From Candidatus Falkowbacteria bacterium (GTDB lineage Bacteria > Patescibacteriota > Patescibacteriia > Patescibacteriales > WJLG01): a stretch of 64,000 nt of DNA. This document shows positions 10,155 through 57,236 of the stretch, one piece after another. The notes under the pieces are model-generated. The model searched no databases, had not been told where the DNA came from, and saw only the letters and a program-made list of their open reading frames with translations. Both the position numbers and the translations under genes were made by a program. The stretch covers positions 389,618-453,617 of the forward strand of contig CAVVFV010000010.1 in assembly GCA_963747695.1 (NCBI GenBank). Direction: 5' to 3'. Position 1 is the stretch's first letter, and the number at the start of each line of letters is the position of its first letter.

Positions 10155-10211
10155 CCGATTATTCGCGTTATTTGCGGCATTCGCGCTCATTCGCGGATTC
10201 GCATCATATAT
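10155..10211. repeat. ATTCGC/CGAATA palindrome family, half-copy (infC|rpmI spacer)
   Basis: ATTCGCGttATTTGCGgcATTCGCGctcATTCGCGgATTCGCATCATATAT, ending at the rpmI ATG. Confidence 0.7.
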
Positions 10212-10409
10212 ATGCCGAAAATTAAGACTCATAAAGCCACTGCGAAAAGATATTTCATCACCAAAAAAGGATCGGTAAAGAAGCGCAAGGCCGGCCAGGA
10301 CCATTTTAATGCCAAAGAAACAGGCAATATGGGCCGGAACAAGCGCCGTGATGTTAAAATCCATAAAACCGAAACTCGGAATATTCAGAGTTTCATCCCT
10401 TATAATTAA
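10212..10409 (+). CDS. rpmI: 50S ribosomal protein L35
   Basis: MPKIKTHKATAKRYFITKKGSVKKRKAGQDH... The tracked ORF (10110) over-extends through the upstream repeat. Confidence 0.92.
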   Translation: MPKIKTHKATAKRYFITKKGSVKKRKAGQDHFNAKETGNMGRNKRRDVKIHKTETRNIQSFIPYN

Positions 10410-11019: not shown

Positions 11020-11033
11020 TCTTACCTCTCAAC

Positions 11034-11137
11034 ATAATCCGAACCCACGAAATATCCAAATACCACGAACGTTTTACGAATTTTTTCGGTTTGTGGAGTT
11101 CGTTGTATTCGGGCACAATTCGTAGTATTCGGATTAT
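11034..11137. repeat. ATTCGC/CGAATA palindrome family copy (secG|SBP spacer)
   Basis: Outer arms ATAATCCGAACCCACGAAAT... and ...ATTCGTAGTATTCGGATTAT. Confidence 0.8.
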
Positions 11138-11160
11138 ATATTGACCCCGATTTTTAAATT

Positions 11161-23526: not shown

Positions 23527-24777
23527 TTATTTTTTTATTAAGACGACTATTTCCCGCCAGACTTTTTGACCGGGGCGGCCGTAGACGATGGTTCCCCGCC
23601 GGGTGGTGTGAAGAATTTCGCGCAAGTTTTCCGGCAGCGGATTGATTACTTGCCAACCGTCCAGATTGGGATTGAGAAAATGAAAATCCGGACGAGACCC
23701 CTCAGTGCGGACCGGAAAGATCATCACGACCCGGCCGTCCGGTTTCAAGATCTTTTTAAATTCCCGCAAAGCCGATGAATATAACTTTTCCAATTTGATC
23801 TTGGTTTTCACCGGATCAGGATTGCCTCTTTGCGGCCCGAGATATGGTTCAGTAACGACGGCATTAATGGAATTAAATTTTATTTTTTGCGAAATTTCGG
23901 TCGCGGAAATATTAAATAATTGGAAATTGGAAATTGGAAATTGGAAATTTGTTTTTAGCCACGCAATATTGTTCTTCGTATCAGAAATCGCTTTTTCGGA
24001 AATGTCGGAACCGATAATATTTTTTATTCCCATCAAGGCTGCTTCCATTAAGATCGTACCCGATCCGCAAAAGGGATCAAGCAGGCTTGGTAGGAACGCA
24101 ATATTTTGCGTTCTGTCCGGCGGGAACGCAAGGCATTGCGTTCCTACGGCGGGAATTTTTCTCGAAAGGTTTAACATGATCTGCGCCAGTTTTGGTGGGA
24201 TCATCCCGGAGGCATCGTCGCGCTCGGGCCGACCGAAATCGCGGAAGGATAATTCTTTGAACGGCTGCACCGCTTCGGTATAGCCTAAATGCATCGTGCC
24301 GCCATCCTCGATCAAGACGATCTCAATCCCCTGCCGGGTCAAGCCGTTCTGCTCGACCACGACGCTCGACAAGGTTTTTTCTTTGCTGGTCACCAGGCGG
24401 CAGCTTACTCCTTTTTGTTTGAGGATTTTTTTGATCGTCAGACCGATGGGAAAAACCGGCAATTTGCTCGCGCCGTAATGGGAAAGGCCGAAGCAGTATT
24501 TATTGGCCTCGGCGCGCTCGGCCAGATCGTCGTCGATTATCTTAAGAATCGCGGCCTTAATCCGATCATTATTATGGCGGTCGACATCCTCGGTAATAAC
24601 GCCGATCTTGATCGTTCCGCCCAGCCGTTTGATCAGTGCCGGAGAGTCCGTGGCCGGATTTTCCAACAGCAAAATATTGCCCGCTACCATGCGAGTTTCC
24701 GCCTCCGGTCGTAAGGCTGAGATTATTTCGGCGGCCGAAAGAGCCGGGTTAGTGCCTAGAACAAAAAAATATTTCAT
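23527..24777 (-). CDS. Trm11/UPF0020-like SAM-dependent (tRNA guanine-N2?) methyltransferase carrying two in-frame repeat insertions
   Basis: 416 aa with a THUMP-like N-terminal half, motif I LLDPFCGSGTILMEAAL and motif IV VVTEPYLG. Repeat-derived peptides are [21 protein letters not shown] and FQFPISNFQLFNI. Confidence 0.75.
   Translation of the reverse strand: MKYFFVLGTNPALSAAEIISALRPEAETRMVAGNILLLENPATDSPALIKRLGGTIKIGVITEDVDRHNNDRIKAAILKIIDDDLAERAEANKYCFGLSHYGASKLPVFPIGLTIKKILKQKGVSCRLVTSKEKTLSSVVVEQNGLTRQGIEIVLIEDGGTMHLGYTEAVQPFKELSFRDFGRPERDDASGMIPPKLAQIMLNLSRKIPAVGTQCLAFPPDRTQNIAFLPSLLDPFCGSGTILMEAALMGIKNIIGSDISEKAISDTKNNIAWLKTNFQFPISNFQLFNISATEISQKIKFNSINAVVTEPYLGPQRGNPDPVKTKIKLEKLYSSALREFKKILKPDGRVVMIFPVRTEGSRPDFHFLNPNLDGWQVINPLPENLREILHTTRRGTIVYGRPGQKVWREIVVLIKK
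23920..23950. repeat. tandem heptamer tract (TTGGAAA x4 plus partial) inside the methyltransferase CDS
   Basis: ttggaaattggaaattggaaattggaaattt, translated on the minus strand as ...FQFPISNFQLF... Confidence 0.85.
24090..24147. repeat. GTAGGAACGCAA double-hairpin palindrome, copy inside the methyltransferase CDS
   Basis: GTAGGAACGCAATATTTTGCGTTC-tgtccggcgg-GAACGCAAGGCATTGCGTTCCTAC. The left arm is identical to the 27214-27237 copy. Confidence 0.85.
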
Positions 24778-26187: not shown

Positions 26188-26542
26188 GGCAGACTCCTTT
26201 TTGGTGTATGGGTTGAAAAATAGCAATCAGTTTTATATTAATATATTAGCATATTATGCGAGCTTTGTCAATATAAAAAGTAGTATTTAGCCAATAAAAT
26301 TGCTAATATTAAATAACAATTTTTCATTTATAATTTTTAATTTATAATTGATTAGGCCCTCTTGCTTTATTTCTCTGTTTCTGATAATCTTTAAACAACA
26401 AATAAAATATCGCCTTTTCCATAGTTCCGCCTTGAGTGGGACTGGTTGCGCCTCGGGCGTGATCATTGGCAACCAAAAAGAAATCTCTTGTTTGGCTGTC
26501 TTATGGATTCAAGGCAGACAAACAAGAGATTTTATTTATCAC

Positions 26543-26649
26543 ATAATCCGAACCTACGAAATACCCGAATACTACGAACATTTTATCGAACGCTTGTTCG
26601 GTTCGTAGATTTCGTAGTATTAGGATATAATTTGTAGTATTCGGATTAT
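26543..26649. repeat. ATTCGC/CGAATA palindrome family copy (upstream of rpsF)
   Basis: ATAATCCGAACCTACGAAATACCCGAATACTACGAAC...TTTGTAGTATTCGGATTAT. Ends 6 nt before the rpsF ATG. Confidence 0.8.
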
Positions 26650-26655
26650 ATTTTT

Positions 26656-27212: not shown

Positions 27213-27276
27213 CGTAGGAACGCAATATTTTGCGTTCAAATAACGCGCACCGAACGCAAAATATTGCGTTCCTACG
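27213..27276. repeat. GTAGGAACGCAA double-hairpin palindrome, intergenic copy (rpsF|ssb spacer)
   Basis: cGTAGGAACGCAATATTTTGCGTTC-aaataacgcgcacc-GAACGCAAAATATTGCGTTCCTACg. Confidence 0.85.
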
Positions 27277-27286
27277 CATCAATTAT

Positions 27287-27799
27287 ATGACTCTCAACAA
27301 AGTAATGCTTATCGGCAATCTGGGCCGCGATCCGGAAATCCGGAATACCGCGACCGGCAAAACCGTCGCTTCTTTTTCCGTCGCCACCAGTATGGTCTGG
27401 AAAGACCAGTCCGGAGCTAAACAGGAAAAGACTGAGTTTCATAACATCGTCGCTTGGGGAAAGTTGGCAGAAATCTGCGGCCAGTATTTGAAGAAAGGTT
27501 TGAAGGTTTATATCGAAGGCCGTTTGCAGACCAGTGATTGGACCGGTCAGGACGGCGTGAAAAGATACCGCACCGAGGTTATCGCCGAAAATATGATCAT
27601 GCTTTCTCCGAAGGGCGGCTACTCGGGTGGTCAATCATCCGGAAGCAATTATGCTCCCCGCGCCGCCGCACCGGCGATGGGTGGCGAGCAACCGTTTGCT
27701 CCGTCTGAACCGATCATCGATATCGACAATCCGTCCGCGGGAGGCAATAACGGCGCTCCGGAGGAAGAAGAGATCAGAGTAGAGAATATACCTTTTTAA
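27287..27799 (+). CDS. ssb: single-stranded DNA-binding protein
   Basis: [19 protein letters not shown]... OB fold, Gly-rich linker and an acidic tail ending ENIPF. The tracked start (27230) lies inside the upstream palindrome. Confidence 0.92.
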
Positions 27800-27806
27800 T
27801 AATTAA

Positions 27807-27903
27807 GATGCTAATCCGCAAATGAAGGCGAATGCCGCGAAAACCGCGAATAGTTTATTCGCATTTTTCGCGGCATTCGCGACTAATTCGCGGCATTCGC
27901 ATC
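27807..27903. repeat. ATTCGC/CGAATA palindrome family copy (ssb|rpsR spacer)
   Basis: GATGCTAATCCGCAAATGAAGGCGAATGCCGCGAAAA...TTTTCGCGGCATTCGC..AATTCGCGGCATTCGCATC. Ends 6 nt before the rpsR ATG. Confidence 0.8.
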
Positions 27904-27909
27904 ATATTT

Positions 27910-33966: not shown

Positions 33967-34139
33967 ATGGCAAGCTTACGATATTCTTAATTCCTAAATC
34001 TTGATTCATAATTCTGTTAATAATCTGGGTAAAACCTTTGATATAAAACCAGGATGGGCAGCATATCGGTGTAATTATTGTTTAATTTTAGCCAATTTAT
34101 AATTAATAATTTATAATTCATAATTTTAGCCGAAATCTC

Positions 34140-34282: not shown

Positions 34283-34486
34283 ATATTAAATAATCTATTC
34301 TTTTTGACGCTAGTAGGCGTCAATTCACAAAAAAAGCATCCCGCCTCGGCGGGATCCTAAAGTCGTCCTGATTTCATACTCAGGGCGCACGTACAGTATA
34401 TAGTCTTGAGAAATCAAGATTCTCTATATTTGGTAATCGGACTTCGGTTCGAGTTTACCCTTCGGCAACGAAGTAAAATTTTAAAA

Positions 34487-36474
<1,988 letters not shown>

Positions 36475-40417: not shown

Positions 40418-40445
40418 ACGTCTGGCAAGAACCAGGCGTTTTTTA
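40418..40445 (+). terminator. intrinsic terminator after trxA
   Basis: ACGTCTGG-caagaa-CCAGGCGT followed by TTTTTT. Confidence 0.75.
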
Positions 40446-40500
40446 ATGTAAAATGCAAATCTCAAAATGTAAAATAATTTTGTATTTTGAGATTTTAATT
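40445..40500. repeat. AAATGTA/AAATGCA heptamer-periodic palindrome (trxA|ROK kinase 3' ends)
   Basis: AATGTAAAATGCAAATCTCAAAATGTAAAATAATTTTGTATTTTGAGATTTTAATT. Contains an 11-bp perfect stem AATCTCAAAAT/ATTTTGAGATT. Confidence 0.7.
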
Positions 40501-41349
40501 TTAAATTAATAATGCTGCCCCGATCGCGCCGGCATCCAGGCCAAGTTTTGATTTTAATATTTTCGTCTTGCCTTGGGTTTTGACGACTTTTTCGTCAATA
40601 GTTTTTTTCAACTCCGGAAGAAATAAATCAGCCGAGGCCATCACGCCGCCGCCGAAGACAATCGCTTCCGGGTCCAATAGATTGATGATGTTGGCGCAGG
40701 CTAACCCGAGGAAATGGCCGACTTCGGTAAAAGCGCGGCGGGCAAGTTCATCGCCATGGTAATTTTCCATCGCCAAGTTTAAAGGATTATTCTGAGTTAA
40801 TTTTTGATAAGAATCTTCCAGATTTGTCTGCTCATTGAAATTAACGATCATCCGGCCTGGTTCGGAAAAGCCGTGGGCGCCGTAATAAATATTGCCATTG
40901 AACCACCAGGCGCCGCCAATTCCGGTCCCGATCGTAATGCCGTAAATATTTTTATATTTGGCGGCCGAGCCGAGGGTGGCTTCGGCGCGCAAAAAACATT
41001 CCGCATCATTATCCATCTTCACGGGCAGATTGATCCGTTTTTCCAAAATTTCCGCCAATTTGATGCCGTTAAGCAAAGGTAAATTTTTTGCGCCCAATAC
41101 TTTGGCGCCGTACGGATCAACAACTCCGGGAACGCCCAGGCCGACGCCTTTGAGCTTAACTTTATCTTCCTCGGCTTTTTTCGAGAGCGGCTCGATGAGT
41201 GCGAGTATCATAATGATGAGATGTTCGAGCGAATCTTTCGGCGTACCCAAAGAATAATCCATCACGACCTGCTCGCCATCAAAGAGCACGGACTTGATGT
41301 TCGTGCCGCCGATGTCAATTCCTATTGAATAAGTTTTTTTATTGCTCAT
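40501..41349 (-). CDS. ROK-family sugar kinase (glucokinase-like)
   Basis: 282 aa with IGIDIGGTNIK and GITIGTGIGGAW. Confidence 0.85.
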   Translation of the reverse strand: MSNKKTYSIGIDIGGTNIKSVLFDGEQVVMDYSLGTPKDSLEHLIIMILALIEPLSKKAEEDKVKLKGVGLGVPGVVDPYGAKVLGAKNLPLLNGIKLAEILEKRINLPVKMDNDAECFLRAEATLGSAAKYKNIYGITIGTGIGGAWWFNGNIYYGAHGFSEPGRMIVNFNEQTNLEDSYQKLTQNNPLNLAMENYHGDELARRAFTEVGHFLGLACANIINLLDPEAIVFGGGVMASADLFLPELKKTIDEKVVKTQGKTKILKSKLGLDAGAIGAALLI

Positions 41350-44661: not shown

Positions 44662-45739
44662 GCGGCCCTTGGCGGACTTGTTCAATGACTCGGGCAAAGG
44701 CAATACTTTTCTGGCTTGGGTTGCTGATCGCGAGTTTTGCCGCCGGTCTGGCGCCGAAAGCAGGACCGAAAAAAGATTTTTCGGCCCGGAAACAAAGGAT
44801 TTTTTCGGTGTCGCAGGCTTTCTCCTTTTGCTGCCGGTTCTTTGGCTGGGGTATCTTTTTTTCCTCTCGGCTCTCCAGCGGCGGGAGAAGATCGACAAGA
44901 TCCTCTGCGTCGCCGAGCGGGAGAAAATAATTTTTACGCCGCTGGCGCGGATTTTGCGGATCGATGTCTATTGGCTGGAATTGCCCGAGCGGGACCGGCG
45001 GCGGTTGAAAAATGCGCGGCGGTTGGTGGCGCGGCCGGCTAAGCTGATCGCCTTCACTGCCCAAGACGCGGAAAACTTGGCGCAGGACGGATTTGCCAAA
45101 GAAAAAATTTATAATATTTCCTTGGGAGTCAATCTGCGATCGGTCGAACGGCAGGACGATCTTTTTTCCAGTTTGGCAAAGGCCGACAAGCCGTACAGTT
45201 TTTATAAAAATTTCAGCGTCGGCGTGGTAGCGGAGTCGGGCGACCGGCGCCGCCTGGAAATCCTCCTGCAGGCGGTCAAAGGCTGTGTTAACCTTATTCC
45301 CAATTTCCGTTTGGTGGTCATCGGTCAGGGCCCGGAAAGCGGGAATCTCAATTGGCTGATCAAAAAATTGGGTCTGGAACGGCGAGTCTGGCTGGTGGGT
45401 GAACAAAAAAATCTGATCCAATGGCTCGATGATCTGGATCTCTATGTCGTGCTGGCGGAAAAACCCGGCTTGAGCGATCTGGAGAAAGCGCTGGCCGCCG
45501 CATCCCGGGGCGTGCCGCTTCTGGGGTTCCGGCATAAAAACTTATCTGATATCATTATCGAAGGGCAGAATGGATTGCTGAATTCGTCAGGTGGCGCCGA
45601 AGAGCTTGCCCGGCAGATCATCGCCATCGAAGCTGACGAACCGGCGCGCAAGAAGATGGGCGCCAACGGCCGGCAGCTGGTCTATCAGAACTTTGACCGG
45701 CAAAAACAACTTCAGCGTTTGAGAGAGATAATAGGATAG
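44621..45739 (+). CDS. glycosyltransferase, GT-B fold (GT4-like)
   Basis: 372 aa. The C-terminal half (...LVVIGQGPE...LDLYVVLAEKPG...GVPLLGF...IIEGQNGLL) is typical of family 1/4 glycosyltransferases. Confidence 0.75.
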   Translation: MAKILIINSAKKFERPLADLFNDSGKGNTFLAWVADREFCRRSGAESRTEKRFFGPETKDFFGVAGFLLLLPVLWLGYLFFLSALQRREKIDKILCVAEREKIIFTPLARILRIDVYWLELPERDRRRLKNARRLVARPAKLIAFTAQDAENLAQDGFAKEKIYNISLGVNLRSVERQDDLFSSLAKADKPYSFYKNFSVGVVAESGDRRRLEILLQAVKGCVNLIPNFRLVVIGQGPESGNLNWLIKKLGLERRVWLVGEQKNLIQWLDDLDLYVVLAEKPGLSDLEKALAAASRGVPLLGFRHKNLSDIIIEGQNGLLNSSGGAEELARQIIAIEADEPARKKMGANGRQLVYQNFDRQKQLQRLREIIG

Positions 45740-45742
45740 AAT

Positions 45743-45859
45743 ATGATGCGAATACTACGAATTTTTCGCGAATACCGCGAACTACTTATCAAATTAACAT
45801 ATCATAATTCGTTAAATCTATTTTTAGTATTCGCGGATAATTTGTAGTATTCGCATTAT
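45743..45859. repeat. ATTCGC/CGAATA palindrome family copy (GT|rluD-like spacer)
   Basis: ATGATGCGAATACTACGAATTTTTCGCGAATACCGCGAAC...TAGTATTCGCGGATAATTTGTAGTATTCGCATTAT. Confidence 0.8.
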
Positions 45860-45870
45860 GTAAAATTTTT

Positions 45871-49506: not shown

Positions 49507-49519
49507 AAAACTTGATTAC

Positions 49520-49629
49520 ATAATGCGAATACTACAAATTTTACGCGAATACAACGAATGATTTAACAAATTTTAATTCGATTCGCAGAGTTCGCGGTAT
49601 TCGCGAAAAATTCGTCGTATTCGTATTAT
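49520..49629. repeat. ATTCGC/CGAATA palindrome family copy (pilX-like|pilM spacer)
   Basis: ATAATGCGAATACTACAAATTTTACGCGAATACAACGAAT...GTTCGCGGTATTCGCGAAAAATTCGTCGTATTCGTATTAT. Confidence 0.8.
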
Positions 49630-49659
49630 ATCATATTGGAAATTGTTTAGGTATGAACT

Positions 49660-51153: not shown

Positions 51154-51196
51154 AAAATGATAATGCAAACTAATGGCAGCCGAACATTGTAAATAT

Positions 51197-51327
51197 AAAA
51201 TCCGAAGCACGAAATCATAAATCCGAAACAAATTCAAAAGTTTAAAATTAAAAATTCAAAACTTTTGAGTTTTTGTTATTTGAATTTTGAACTTGTTTCG
51301 GATTTATTGCTTAGGATTTCGGATTTT
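51197..51327. repeat. 130-bp imperfect palindrome with AAATCCG heptamer-periodic arms (pilin-like gene | PilX-like gene spacer)
   Basis: AAAATCCGAAGCACGAAATCATAAATCCGAAACAAATTCAAAA...TTTTGAACTTGTTTCGGATTTATTGCTTAGGATTTCGGATTTT. Confidence 0.8.
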
Positions 51328-51376
51328 TTAAGTCCGGATCATTAGTAAAAAATTCAATCTATAGTTACCAATATTT

Positions 51377-53920: not shown

Positions 53921-53930
53921 AACGCACATC

Positions 53931-53993
53931 ACGTAACACGTAACACGTAACACGTAACACGTAACACGTAACACGTAACACGTAACACGTAAC
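53931..53993. repeat. perfect tandem heptamer array (ACGTAAC x9; GTGTTAC on the coding strand) 10 nt upstream of the large pilin-like gene start
   Basis: 63 bp of uninterrupted 7-bp periodicity. Confidence 0.9.
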
Positions 53994-54074
53994 AATAAAC
54001 TCTGCTCGATAAATTAAAAAAACACCTTAAATTTAAAAAAAGTCAATTATTCGGAAAGATATCGAATTAAGGTC

Positions 54075-57166: not shown

Positions 57167-57236
57167 GTAACTCATAACTCATAACTCATAACTCATAACT
57201 CATAACTCATAACTCATAACTCATAACTCATAACAA
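57167..57236. repeat. tandem heptamer array (ATAACTC x ~10; GAGTTAT toward pilB) upstream of the pilB promoter
   Basis: gtaactc followed by eight perfect ataactc units and ataacaa. Confidence 0.9.

Follow-up and report, generated by a model that had tools for sequence, protein, structure and literature searches.

An inverted dimer of GTAG-tagged REPs and a heptanucleotide repeat are translated within a Trm11-like methyltransferase gene of a Candidatus Falkowbacteria bacterium

Results

Two repeats lie within the coding sequence of a Trm11-like methyltransferase

Here we describe two repeats, a 58-bp palindrome and a tract of perfect heptamers, that are translated within one methyltransferase gene of Candidatus Falkowbacteria bacterium. 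The DNA analysed was a stretch of 64,000 nt from assembly GCA_963747695.1 (CAVVFV010000010.1, 389,618-453,617, forward strand), which we refer to as the window, and positions are counted from its first letter. The gene encodes a protein with a THUMP module and a Rossmann methyltransferase domain, and a second copy of the palindrome lies between rpsF and ssb (Table 1). At orthologue loci the gene is divergent from rpsF-ssb-rpsR-efp, with ychF downstream.

The host protein matches Pfam UPF0020 (PF01170) with 51 bits against a cut-off of 22.3 (E 1.9e-13), the match beginning at residue 231, which corresponds to profile position 31, and spanning profile positions 31-167. It contains S-adenosylmethionine (SAM) motif I, DPFCGSG, and a motif IV-like TEPYLG, both of which are invariant across the family, and a search for homologues returned 3,597 matches, several of them from sources named Patescibacteria, Parcubacteria or Falkowbacteria. 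An AlphaFold2 model built with 39 homologues has a mean predicted local distance difference test (pLDDT) score of 87.6, and its top PDB matches in Foldseek are the archaeal Trm11 structures 6zxw, 6zxv and 5e71, with template modelling scores, TM(target), of 0.78-0.81. The best of these is 6zxw, Trm11 of A. fulgidus (TM(target) 0.81, E 7.5e-24), and the archaeal fold match spans the N-terminal THUMP-type module as well as the Rossmann domain. The score against NCBIfam TIGR01177 (archaeal Trm11) is 72 bits, below the equivalog cut-off of 316, and "Trm11-like" is therefore the safer name. Judging from these matches, "housekeeping-type, Trm11-like" is a fair name for the gene; its product is a distant relative of archaeal Trm11, and m2G10 (N2-methylguanosine 10) activity is a prediction at most.

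On the plus strand, positions 24090-24147 read GTAG-GAACGCAA-TATT-TTGCGTTC-TGTCCGGCGG-GAACGCAA-GGCA-TTGCGTTC-CTAC (58 bp). This is a REPIN-like inverted dimer of GTAG-tagged repetitive extragenic palindromes (REPs), because it has GTAG feet, 8-bp stems, 4-nt loops and inverted halves that face outward in the head-to-head (HH) arrangement. GTAG-tagged REPs and their HH inverted dimers were defined by Di Nocera (2013, PMC3733652), and the inverted REP dimer is the layout of the REPIN (REP doublet forming a hairpin) of Bertels and Rainey (2011, PMC3116915). An earlier reading of the window made from its letters alone, hereafter the sequence-only reading, had placed a double hairpin in frame inside this coding sequence (CDS), with which the sequence and the open reading frame (ORF) agree, and had noted a 24-nt arm shared with the intergenic copy; the arms at 24090-24113 and 27214-27237 are indeed identical. 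Its coordinates for the heptamer tract (23920-23950) and for the intergenic copy (27213-27276) were correct to within 1-2 bases.

The intergenic copy reads GTAG-GAACGCAA-TATT-TTGCGTTC-(14 nt)-GAACGCAA-AATA-TTGCGTTC-CTAC at 27214-27275, with its GTAG foot at 27214-27217 and CTAC at 27272-27275. The 14-nt spacer is flanked by 25-nt arms (27213-27237 and 27252-27276) with 100% complementarity, and the element starts 6 nt past the rpsF stop (27207) and ends 11 nt upstream of the ssb ATG (27287). The window contains the pattern GAACGCAA-N4-TTGCGTTC four times, where 0.39 occurrences would be expected, and none of 100 shuffles attained four. Folded as RNA, the CDS copy (coding strand) reaches -33.6 kcal/mol (z -7.8) and the intergenic copy -40.9 kcal/mol (z -10.5), and the minimum-energy folds of both dimers pair unit 1 with unit 2. 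Rfam, run on the whole window, matched 16S rRNA only, and neither the palindrome nor the heptamer tract is covered by any of its families.

Table 1. Coordinates of the methyltransferase gene, its two repeats and the other repeats of the window
Feature	Position	Strand	Basis
Host CDS, THUMP + Rossmann methyltransferase, Trm11-like (Pfam UPF0020)	23527..24777	-	416-aa ORF
Intragenic REP dimer, inverted, GTAG feet outside, REPIN-like; codes residues 211-229	24090..24147	.	sequence, frame
REP unit 1: GTAG foot 24090-24093, 8-bp stem GAACGCAA/TTGCGTTC, 4-nt loop TATT	24090..24113	+	
Spacer, 10 nt, TGTCCGGCGG; codes PPDR on coding strand	24114..24123	.	
REP unit 2, inverted: hairpin 24124-24143, loop GGCA on + strand; CTAC foot 24144-24147 (GTAG on minus)	24124..24147	-	
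Intergenic REP dimer between rpsF and ssb	27213..27276	.	inverted-repeat search, fold
Perfect heptamer tract, (AATTTCC)x4.6 on coding strand; codes N277-L287	23918..23949	-	TRF
Other period-7 arrays, starts (n=17)	26318, 31333, 34094, 39299, 40445, 41350, 42887, 43117, 46043, 51230, 53930, 55261, 55327, 57168, 57306, 61786, 61911		
TTCG/CGAA-rich repeat copies	11032-11142, 26541-26654, 45736-45864, 49516-49636, 10160-10213, 27799-27908		

The REP dimer is an in-frame insertion in a disordered linker

In our linker survey, which covers 104 homologues with locatable flanking motifs (...AQIMLNLS to LLDPFCGSG), the linker is 7-60 aa long, and in 31 of them it has 7 or 8 aa. The linker encoded in the window has 26 aa. 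Around the insert the protein reads ...KLAQIMLNLSRKIPA, then 19 REP-coded residues (211-229), then PSLLDPFCGSG..., and taking the 19 away leaves RKIPAPS, 7 aa. Excision of the same residues in silico raises the UPF0020 match from 51 to 65.9 bits and extends it from profile positions 31-167 to 8-167, continuous over the junction. In the AlphaFold2 model, pLDDT drops below 50 solely at residues 211-227, between helix 195-204 and strand 231-234 with motif I. The palindrome is an in-frame insertion of 57 nt, or 19 residues, in a disordered linker; the sequence-only reading had claimed such an insertion, and the basal linker of 7 aa, the gain in UPF0020 score upon excision and the position of the sole low-confidence segment of the model support it.

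GTAG brings a stop codon in one frame, and the other two frames read VGTQ..AFL or RNA..CVPT. We propose that one REP copy landed, or was maintained, in a surface linker of 7 aa that joins the first helix of the methyltransferase domain to SAM motif I, where it would have survived owing to a stop-free frame (GTA GGA ACG CAA, read as VGTQ) and to a loop that tolerates changes of length. Tolerance of the loop would then be the reason for the persistence of the REP.

The possibility that the linker is the former intergenic spacer of a gene fusion was considered and rejected, as the preceding helix lies within the UPF0020 profile and archaeal Trm11 has the same layout. Inserts of this kind break domain-model matches, here at the cost of 15 bits of UPF0020 score and the first 23 profile positions, and they yield recurring "junk" peptides in metagenomic proteins, such as VGTQNLAFL, VETRHCLVST, SPLLSKEG and others.

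The same REP occurs in other genomes, in part within or near RAYT-like genes

We scanned one GTDB representative genome per species for the pattern GTAGGAACGCAA-N4-TTGCGTTC and found it at 36 loci. Several related Patescibacteria metagenome-assembled genomes (MAGs) carry 2-4 loci each with the exact pattern; the window itself contains two dimers. Further positive MAGs are labelled Gammaproteobacteria, Bacteroidota, Ktedonobacteraceae, Bdellovibrionales and Saccharibacteria. The 36 loci include dimers of the kind seen in the window as well as single GTAG...CTAC hairpins, and across the family the loops vary freely and the feet are conserved. A single hairpin that begins with GTAG and finishes with CTAC is the "double foot" REP of Quentin (2018, PMC6006769), which may derive from an inverted dimer through a central deletion and was assigned there to TnpA_REP subclass 2.4. 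In-frame copies in long ORFs of other genomes use both open frames, and the ORFs that host them appear, when compared by eye, to resemble ValRS, LeuRS, MurD and MnmA. The search for more copies inside and outside CDSs that the sequence-only reading had proposed has thus turned up further copies in both settings, in the window and among the GTDB loci.

At five of the 36 loci the hairpin lies within, adjoining or at most about 0.6 kb from a gene for a protein of about 190 aa that resembles REP-associated tyrosine transposases (RAYTs). Two hairpins lie within this gene, as DIVGTQDFAFIQS and TQNVGTQNVGTQNLAFL, in a Patescibacteria single-cell genome (L009); at L003, VGTQNVGTQNVGTQNFASLQ lies within the gene and a full hairpin about 525 nt beyond its stop codon; at L021 a hairpin lies 23 nt 3' of the stop; and at L029 and L032 hairpins adjoin matches to the ~190-aa protein. 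The RAYT-like proteins carry NHIH, WQ and YI(I/Q)NNP as HuH, W and Y motifs, and NHIH-type HuH, W and Y motifs are listed for TnpA_REP subclass 2.4 (PMC6006769). They match the NCBIfam model NF047646, "REP-associated tyrosine transposase", at E values of 5e-17 to 5e-15, and their sole PDB match is E. coli TnpA_REP, 4ER8. The partner enzyme of this REP family would be a RAYT (TnpA_REP, a Y1 HUH transposase) with subclass 2.4 motifs, a subclass known for double-foot REPs and for REPs in frame within its own gene. Such an enzyme may have mobilised the REP in this genome.

No target consensus was seen when the flanks of about 25 REPs were compared by eye, and CCGCC on both sides of unit 1 may be a coincidence. 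Transposition of the IS200 type leaves no target duplication. A text search of the literature for the exact stem or the encoded peptides returned unrelated primers and short hairpin RNAs (shRNAs) only, and a search for REP or RAYT in Patescibacteria or the candidate phyla radiation (CPR) returned nothing specific, with no earlier description of REPs in the group among its results.

MAGs that were assigned to at least six phyla share the identical 12-nt stem GTAGGAACGCAA (loci L002-L037), assignments in which contig mis-binning is possible; REPs are usually described as species-specific. The RAYT-like proteins beside the REPs are only 48-61% identical to one another. At several non-Patescibacteria loci (L011, L016, L021, L027) the hairpin caps a longer, locus-specific palindrome. 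In two different MAGs (L010 1783-1802, L026 5928-5947) the same REP is found at the same position of a MurD-resembling protein (ICDKKK[T/V][R/G]TQNFAF[L/P]PK), a case of same-site occupancy.

The dimer is conserved at the nucleotide level between orthologues

The orthologue in L001 (81% protein identity, ENA assembly) carries the same dimer at the same codon as the window. The two genes share 75% nucleotide identity, and outside the element 48.5% of third codon positions agree. Inside it, 53 of 57 bases are identical, and all four changes fall in the two loops. The corresponding figure for L043 (77% identity, JGI assembly) is 54 of 57 bases, and in this orthologue 30 nt, made up of one hairpin and the spacer, are duplicated in frame. 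Outside the element, third codon positions are 48-54% identical in L001 and L043, against 18 of 19 inside it (P = 2e-5 for L001 and 1.5e-4 for L043), and in the comparison with L001 a sliding frame of 20 codons reaches its highest third-position identity anywhere in the gene over the element. The 10-nt spacer, which lies outside the palindrome and differs from the spacer of the intergenic copy, is identical in L001 and one base off in L043. As far as these alignments go, conservation of spacer and stem points to selection on DNA or RNA, or to repeated conversion.

An alternative to a merely tolerated insertion is that the intragenic dimer is kept as a nucleic-acid element and its peptide is incidental. 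It could act as an mRNA hairpin of about -34 kcal/mol, whether for ribosome pausing between domains or as a mark for RNase cleavage, or as a DNA site for a host protein. The excess of base identity over that of third positions, the confinement of the L001 changes to loops and the retention of the spacer all favour this view, together with the high stability of the hairpin as RNA and the presence of some hairpin at the same linker in most orthologues; disorder is predicted for the encoded peptide, whose sequence is hypervariable among family members, and both make constraint at the protein level improbable. We rate this alternative as unlikely, however. A basal-length linker without insert motifs in 37 of 104 orthologues indicates that the hairpin is dispensable, and the occupants, some of them unstructured heptamer tracts, represent at least six sequence families that bear no relation to one another, which is a better fit to a permissive or targeted landing site. 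The conservation itself is explicable by conversion against other REP copies or by RAYT-dependent maintenance.

The linker is recurrently occupied by repeats across orthologues

We assigned the linkers of the 104 homologues to classes by peptide pattern. None of the insert motifs was present in 37, which are of basal length; 18 have inserts of the SPLLSKEG / SPCQGEG type, 15 have GTAG-REP-type peptides (VGTQ..AF, VETRH..., VETQNLASL...), 12 are of the HC.C...QCP type, six of the HPSQEG type, three have a heptamer-coded linker and 13 have other inserts. About two thirds of the orthologues thus carry a short hairpin or repeat at this position, and these patterns mark the linker that precedes SAM motif I as a hot spot for repeats throughout the phylum. 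The sequence-only reading had proposed a lineage-specific insertion at a site where homologues have a short linker; the short linker is borne out by the basal 7-8 aa of 31 homologues, but the occupation of the site by other hairpins or repeats in about two thirds of orthologues speaks against lineage specificity.

At the DNA level, L039 (51% identity) has a different GTAG REP, GTAGAGACGAGG-CACTG-CCTCGTCTCTAC, directly after a GCC codon and followed by tandem 51-nt units, each with a partial copy of the hairpin. L044 (49% identity) has GTAGGAACACAA-GATT-TTGTGTTCC after CCC GCC, with a stem that differs from that of the window by a G:C to A:T change on both sides. Hairpins of the CCCCTCCTT..AAGGAGGG type lie at the linker in L038 and L041, and L040 has none. 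For L038 and L039, a second copy of the linker-insert motif was not found within 10 kb on either side of the gene. The recurrent occupation could stem from exceptional tolerance, from the targeting of a hairpin already in place, or from selection for a structured element.

A wider form of the nucleic-acid alternative covers both repeats. Here the linker and the heptamer site would serve across the phylum as landing pads of long standing, with occupants that are selected as nucleic acid and renewed from genome-wide repeat pools, and their function may be translation pacing between domains, controlled mRNA cleavage or a RAYT-dependent process. This view leans on the conservation of stem, feet and spacer where synonymous sites are saturated, on the GTAG REPs that follow GCC in orthologues of 49-51% identity, and on a heptamer that stays at its codons through changes of unit and one flip of orientation (see below); we consider it doubtful. 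Whichever view holds, the roughly 100 orthologues, in which a single codon position has received at least six insert families, form a natural data set for targeted versus tolerated insertion, and the same set can be used to ask if coding-region hairpins are selected as nucleic acid.

The heptamer tract is shared across the orthologue family

Tandem Repeats Finder (TRF) reports the heptamer tract with period 7, 4.6 copies and 100% matches at 23918-23949. On the coding strand it consists of (AATTTCC)x4 + AATT, and AAT TTC CAA TTT CCA ATT TCC AAT TTC CAA TT(A) is translated as NFQFPISNFQL. The RNA of the tract is unstructured (0 kcal/mol). In the AlphaFold2 model the encoded residues, N277-L287, have a pLDDT of about 85 and run from the end of helix 261-278 through a loop into strand 284-288. 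The sequence-only reading had suggested modelling the structure to see whether both repeats fall in surface loops, and this is true of the palindrome, which lies in the disordered loop, but not of the heptamer tract, part of which forms a core beta-strand. A protein-level repeat of 7 aa was considered as the source of the periodicity and rejected: its halves differ in structural role and the four DNA units are identical even at synonymous positions, and the periodicity is therefore a property of the DNA.

Nine orthologues, including the gene of the window, were compared at the DNA level. In six of the nine, again including the window, TRF reports a period-7 array at these codons, with 4.6-5.6 units, over a range of about 49% to 76% protein identity. 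The unit is AATTTTC in L039 (4.7 units, 100%), AATTTCC in L041 (5.6 units), AAATATC in L042 (4.6 units) and AATCGAC in L044 (5.4 units), and L040 has 4.9 units. L045 (the P0112 gene) has the heptamer of the window (AATTGGA/ATTGGAA) at the corresponding site but oppositely oriented (1140-1175), with ATTGGAA x3 on the coding strand, so that it codes GNWKLEI instead of NFQFPIS. The tract is absent from the site in L038. In L001 and L043 it is interrupted by small hairpin inserts with heptamer units on both flanks; those of L001, at about 1600-1640, are GCCGAC-GTAAA-GTCGGC and TCCCGAG-CTTGC-CTCGGGA, and that of L043, at about 380-410, codes FLRQAQDGQF. A copy of the second-site double hairpin of L001 (GCCGAC..GTCGGC + TCCCGAG..CTCGGGA) was not found in the window.

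Among 120 homologues, 35 contain a 7-residue peptide that corresponds to three identical heptamers in three frames, against about 0.4 expected. Nearly all of these peptides lie about 43 residues past DPFCGSG, and at least 14 different units are represented. Relative to archaeal Trm11, the family has about six extra residues at this site. The sequence-only reading had taken the heptamer for a lineage-specific insertion, which the same-codon arrays in six of nine orthologues and the three-heptamer peptides in 35 of 120 proteins contradict. By these comparisons the tract is a family-wide heptanucleotide simple-sequence repeat, neither a recent insertion nor a demonstrated switch. Its units are alike within a lineage and different between lineages, which suggests that slippage or conversion has recurred while selection kept the frame open. 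We propose that the tract is ancestral to the orthologue family and that slippage, or else conversion, would have homogenised its units under this constraint.

A third length-variable spot in the methyltransferase lies at residues ~355-365, after strand 344-359, and some homologues (P0045, P0066, P0086) have heptamer-coded peptides there (SSFKLQA, HGTWNMEH).

Period-7 arrays are abundant in the genome and mostly lie upstream of genes

No tandem period other than 7 is enriched in the window. It accounts for seven tracts of 3.5 units or more, whereas periods 5, 6 and 8-12 have none and shuffles yield none. Over 404 kb, comprising the window and the loci fetched for comparison, TRF reports 65 period-7 arrays and at most 19 for any other period. 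Of the 18 such arrays in the window, the methyltransferase tract is the only one far inside a gene. The remaining arrays occupy intergenic DNA or the very 5' end of ORFs, often immediately 5' of the start codon (41350, 31333, 55261, 53930); the array at 34094 lies 13 nt 5' of a TTGACA box upstream of the 16S gene, and others likewise lie just 5' of promoter-like boxes. Long perfect arrays include CACGTAA x9.3 at 53930-53994 and TAACTCA x9.6 at 57168-57234, and some arrays form inverted pairs (40440-40512, 51194-51330). Array lengths peak at 30-33 nt (26 of 65), a tentative figure, as imperfect arrays need such a length to pass the TRF score.

These arrays raise the possibility that the tract in the gene is one of a genome-wide set of heptamer-periodic cis elements, found upstream of starts and of -35 boxes, that are kept for a binding or regulatory role. 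The number and placement of the arrays in the window and the length peak agree with this, and so does the fact that the family keeps a tract at these codons with units specific to each lineage; for the analogous TAACTGA repeats found upstream of start codons, a role as binding sites of regulators has been proposed (PMC4679880). We nevertheless think it improbable. No unit is conserved, with at least 14 across orthologues and many within the window, which makes a single sequence-specific binder unlikely, and the length peak is possibly an artefact of the TRF score threshold. L038 does without the tract, L001 and L043 have it interrupted, and a strong promoter-like site adjoining the tract was not found.

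Still less can be said for the proposal of the sequence-only reading that the tract is a phase-variable switch, in which the methyltransferase would be turned off or on by frameshifts, each due to one 7-nt unit gained or lost. A unit length that is not a multiple of three, and four perfectly identical units, which imply recent slippage or conversion and hence mutability, are in its favour, as is the slippage-prone nature reported for heptanucleotide repeats (Mrazek 2007, in the part summarised in PMC4679880). However, all retrieved orthologues are open through the tract, in a sample that the protein search biases towards intact ORFs; the unit number is nearly invariant, at 4.6-5.6 in six of them, which by the criterion that the sequence-only reading had set weakens the switch, and no out-of-frame allele was seen. 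Moreover, the tract codes a core beta-strand, the gene is a syntenic housekeeping-type gene and neither a surface nor a restriction gene, and 4.6 units is short for a contingency locus. On balance we judge a switch to be very improbable.

Other features of the window

The 16S rRNA gene (34481-36474) has an apparent insertion of ~510 nt between CTTGTACTCA (35820-35829) and CGCCCGTCAC (36342-36351), near E. coli 1395-1400. Its Rfam match ends at 35893, and the true 3' end, GGATCACCTCCTTTC, is at 36460-36474. A 23S gene was not found in the next kilobases past the 16S gene. A second dispersed repeat family, rich in TTCG/CGAA, has arms of 45-60 nt in inverted pairs that could form long hairpins (Table 1). 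Copies of it lie just upstream of rpsF and rpsR, and in L041 the rpsF-ssb spacer holds this family as a long hairpin of about -59 kcal/mol.

Discussion

We think it probable that the palindrome is a GTAG REP dimer of a RAYT-2.4-linked family that was inserted in frame in a loop, and that the heptamer is an ancestral heptanucleotide repeat as opposed to an established switch. Several results weigh against this interpretation. The RAYT-like proteins score 18.9-20.9 bits with Pfam Y1_Tnp, under the gathering threshold of 23, and 56-62 bits with NF047646, under the equivalog cut-off of 80. A tblastn search of the 64-kb window with the L009 protein did not find a RAYT, its best matches being REP-coded peptides, and the two dimers in 64 kb compare with the tens to hundreds of classic REPIN populations. 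Tolerance gives no account of the spacer, which is non-palindromic and yet is conserved, as the stems are, in orthologues whose synonymous sites are saturated. Nor does simple tolerance easily explain the occupancy of the linker in about two thirds of orthologues, since L038 and L039 have no second copy of their insert motifs in the 10 kb to either side. As to the heptamer, homogenisation within a CDS requires out-of-frame intermediates unless it proceeds in steps of three units, and the opposite orientation in L045 is beyond the reach of slippage alone.

Two further explanations fare worse than those discussed above. The palindrome could be an operator for a dimeric transcription factor that controls rpsF-ssb, with the intragenic copy a second site or a coincidence, as a perfect 20-bp dyad occurs twice per site and just upstream of ssb. 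We consider an operator highly improbable, since the same footed hairpin is found in MAGs assigned to several phyla, where it lies in frame within many unrelated genes, caps longer palindromes and occurs in or near RAYT genes, and since free loops with conserved feet are the pattern of a REP and not of an operator. Chance similarity or an assembly artefact, for which only the short length of the elements can be cited, is practically dismissed by the failure of all 100 shuffles to attain the observed count and, in the case of an artefact, is refuted by the presence of the same insert at the same codon in the independent ENA (L001) and JGI (L043) assemblies.

Read as a REP dimer and an ancestral heptanucleotide repeat, the two elements are known kinds of repeat in a host group for which the literature searched gave no earlier description. 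If this ordinary interpretation holds, the locus is one more case of a known phenomenon in a new host group. It would also extend the REP system to the small, gene-dense genomes of Patescibacteria, with hairpins that are translated within core genes.

REPs and REPINs with their RAYTs have been described mainly in Proteobacteria, Cyanobacteria and Bacteroidetes. The closest known system is that of GTAG REPs and REPINs with RAYTs of subclass 2.4 (PMC3733652, PMC6006769, PMC3116915), with which the element of the window shares an inverted dimer whose units are separated by a short spacer and can together form one long hairpin, in-frame copies in genes with dimers coding about 20 aa, and, in other genomes, the same hairpin in or near a RAYT gene with NH[IFV]H, WQ and YIxNNP. 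It differs in its Patescibacteria host, in a low apparent copy number (2 dimers/64 kb) with no RAYT found in the window, in the identical 12-nt stem over at least six phyla, and in the recurrent, phylum-wide occupation of one linker. Intragenic GTAG and CGTC REPs, including dimers coding 20-30 aa, are documented, and RPE-4 and RPE-6 of the Rickettsia palindromic elements (RPEs) are CGTC REPs (PMC3733652). The intragenic REPs of Opitutus terrae, Thauera, Xanthomonas and others are likewise singletons or dimers in frame in tRNA-related and DNA-repair genes (PMC3733652). Recurrence at the same site is known there from a single recB example, whereas here it involves about 70 of 104 orthologues and at least six families.

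The sequence-only reading had compared the palindrome with RPEs, and this analogy describes the mode of action well but not the family, which is that of GTAG REPs with a linked RAYT. RPEs are said to insert in frame into protein genes, as reportedly found by Ogata in 2000, and RPE-1 has a length of ~100-150 bp, so the element of the window is much shorter. In both systems, palindromes in frame in housekeeping genes add a peptide at a tolerated surface site, and intergenic copies occur too. In contrast to RPEs, the tag here is GTAG and not CGTC, the sequences are unrelated, the host is not Rickettsia and a candidate transposase partner is at hand.

The heptamer resembles a different group of repeats. 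The Nostoc small dispersed repeats (SDR), which Elhai reportedly found in 2008 to be embedded in heptamer repeats, are matched here by small hairpin inserts inside heptamer tracts with heptamer flanks (L001, L043), in another host group and with other sequences. A general excess of heptanucleotide repeats was described by Mrazek (2007), according to the part of that work summarised in PMC4679880. The TAACTGA repeats of Beggiatoaceae, Cyanobacteria and Bacteroidetes (PMC4679880) and the cyanobacterial short tandemly repeated repetitive sequences (STRR) are like the arrays of the window in that period 7 dominates, most arrays lie upstream of starts with few in ORFs, and the RNA is unstructured. 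They differ in having one dominant unit, whereas the genome studied here has many, and here an array is fixed at orthologous codons phylum-wide, with lineage-specific units and one flip of orientation.

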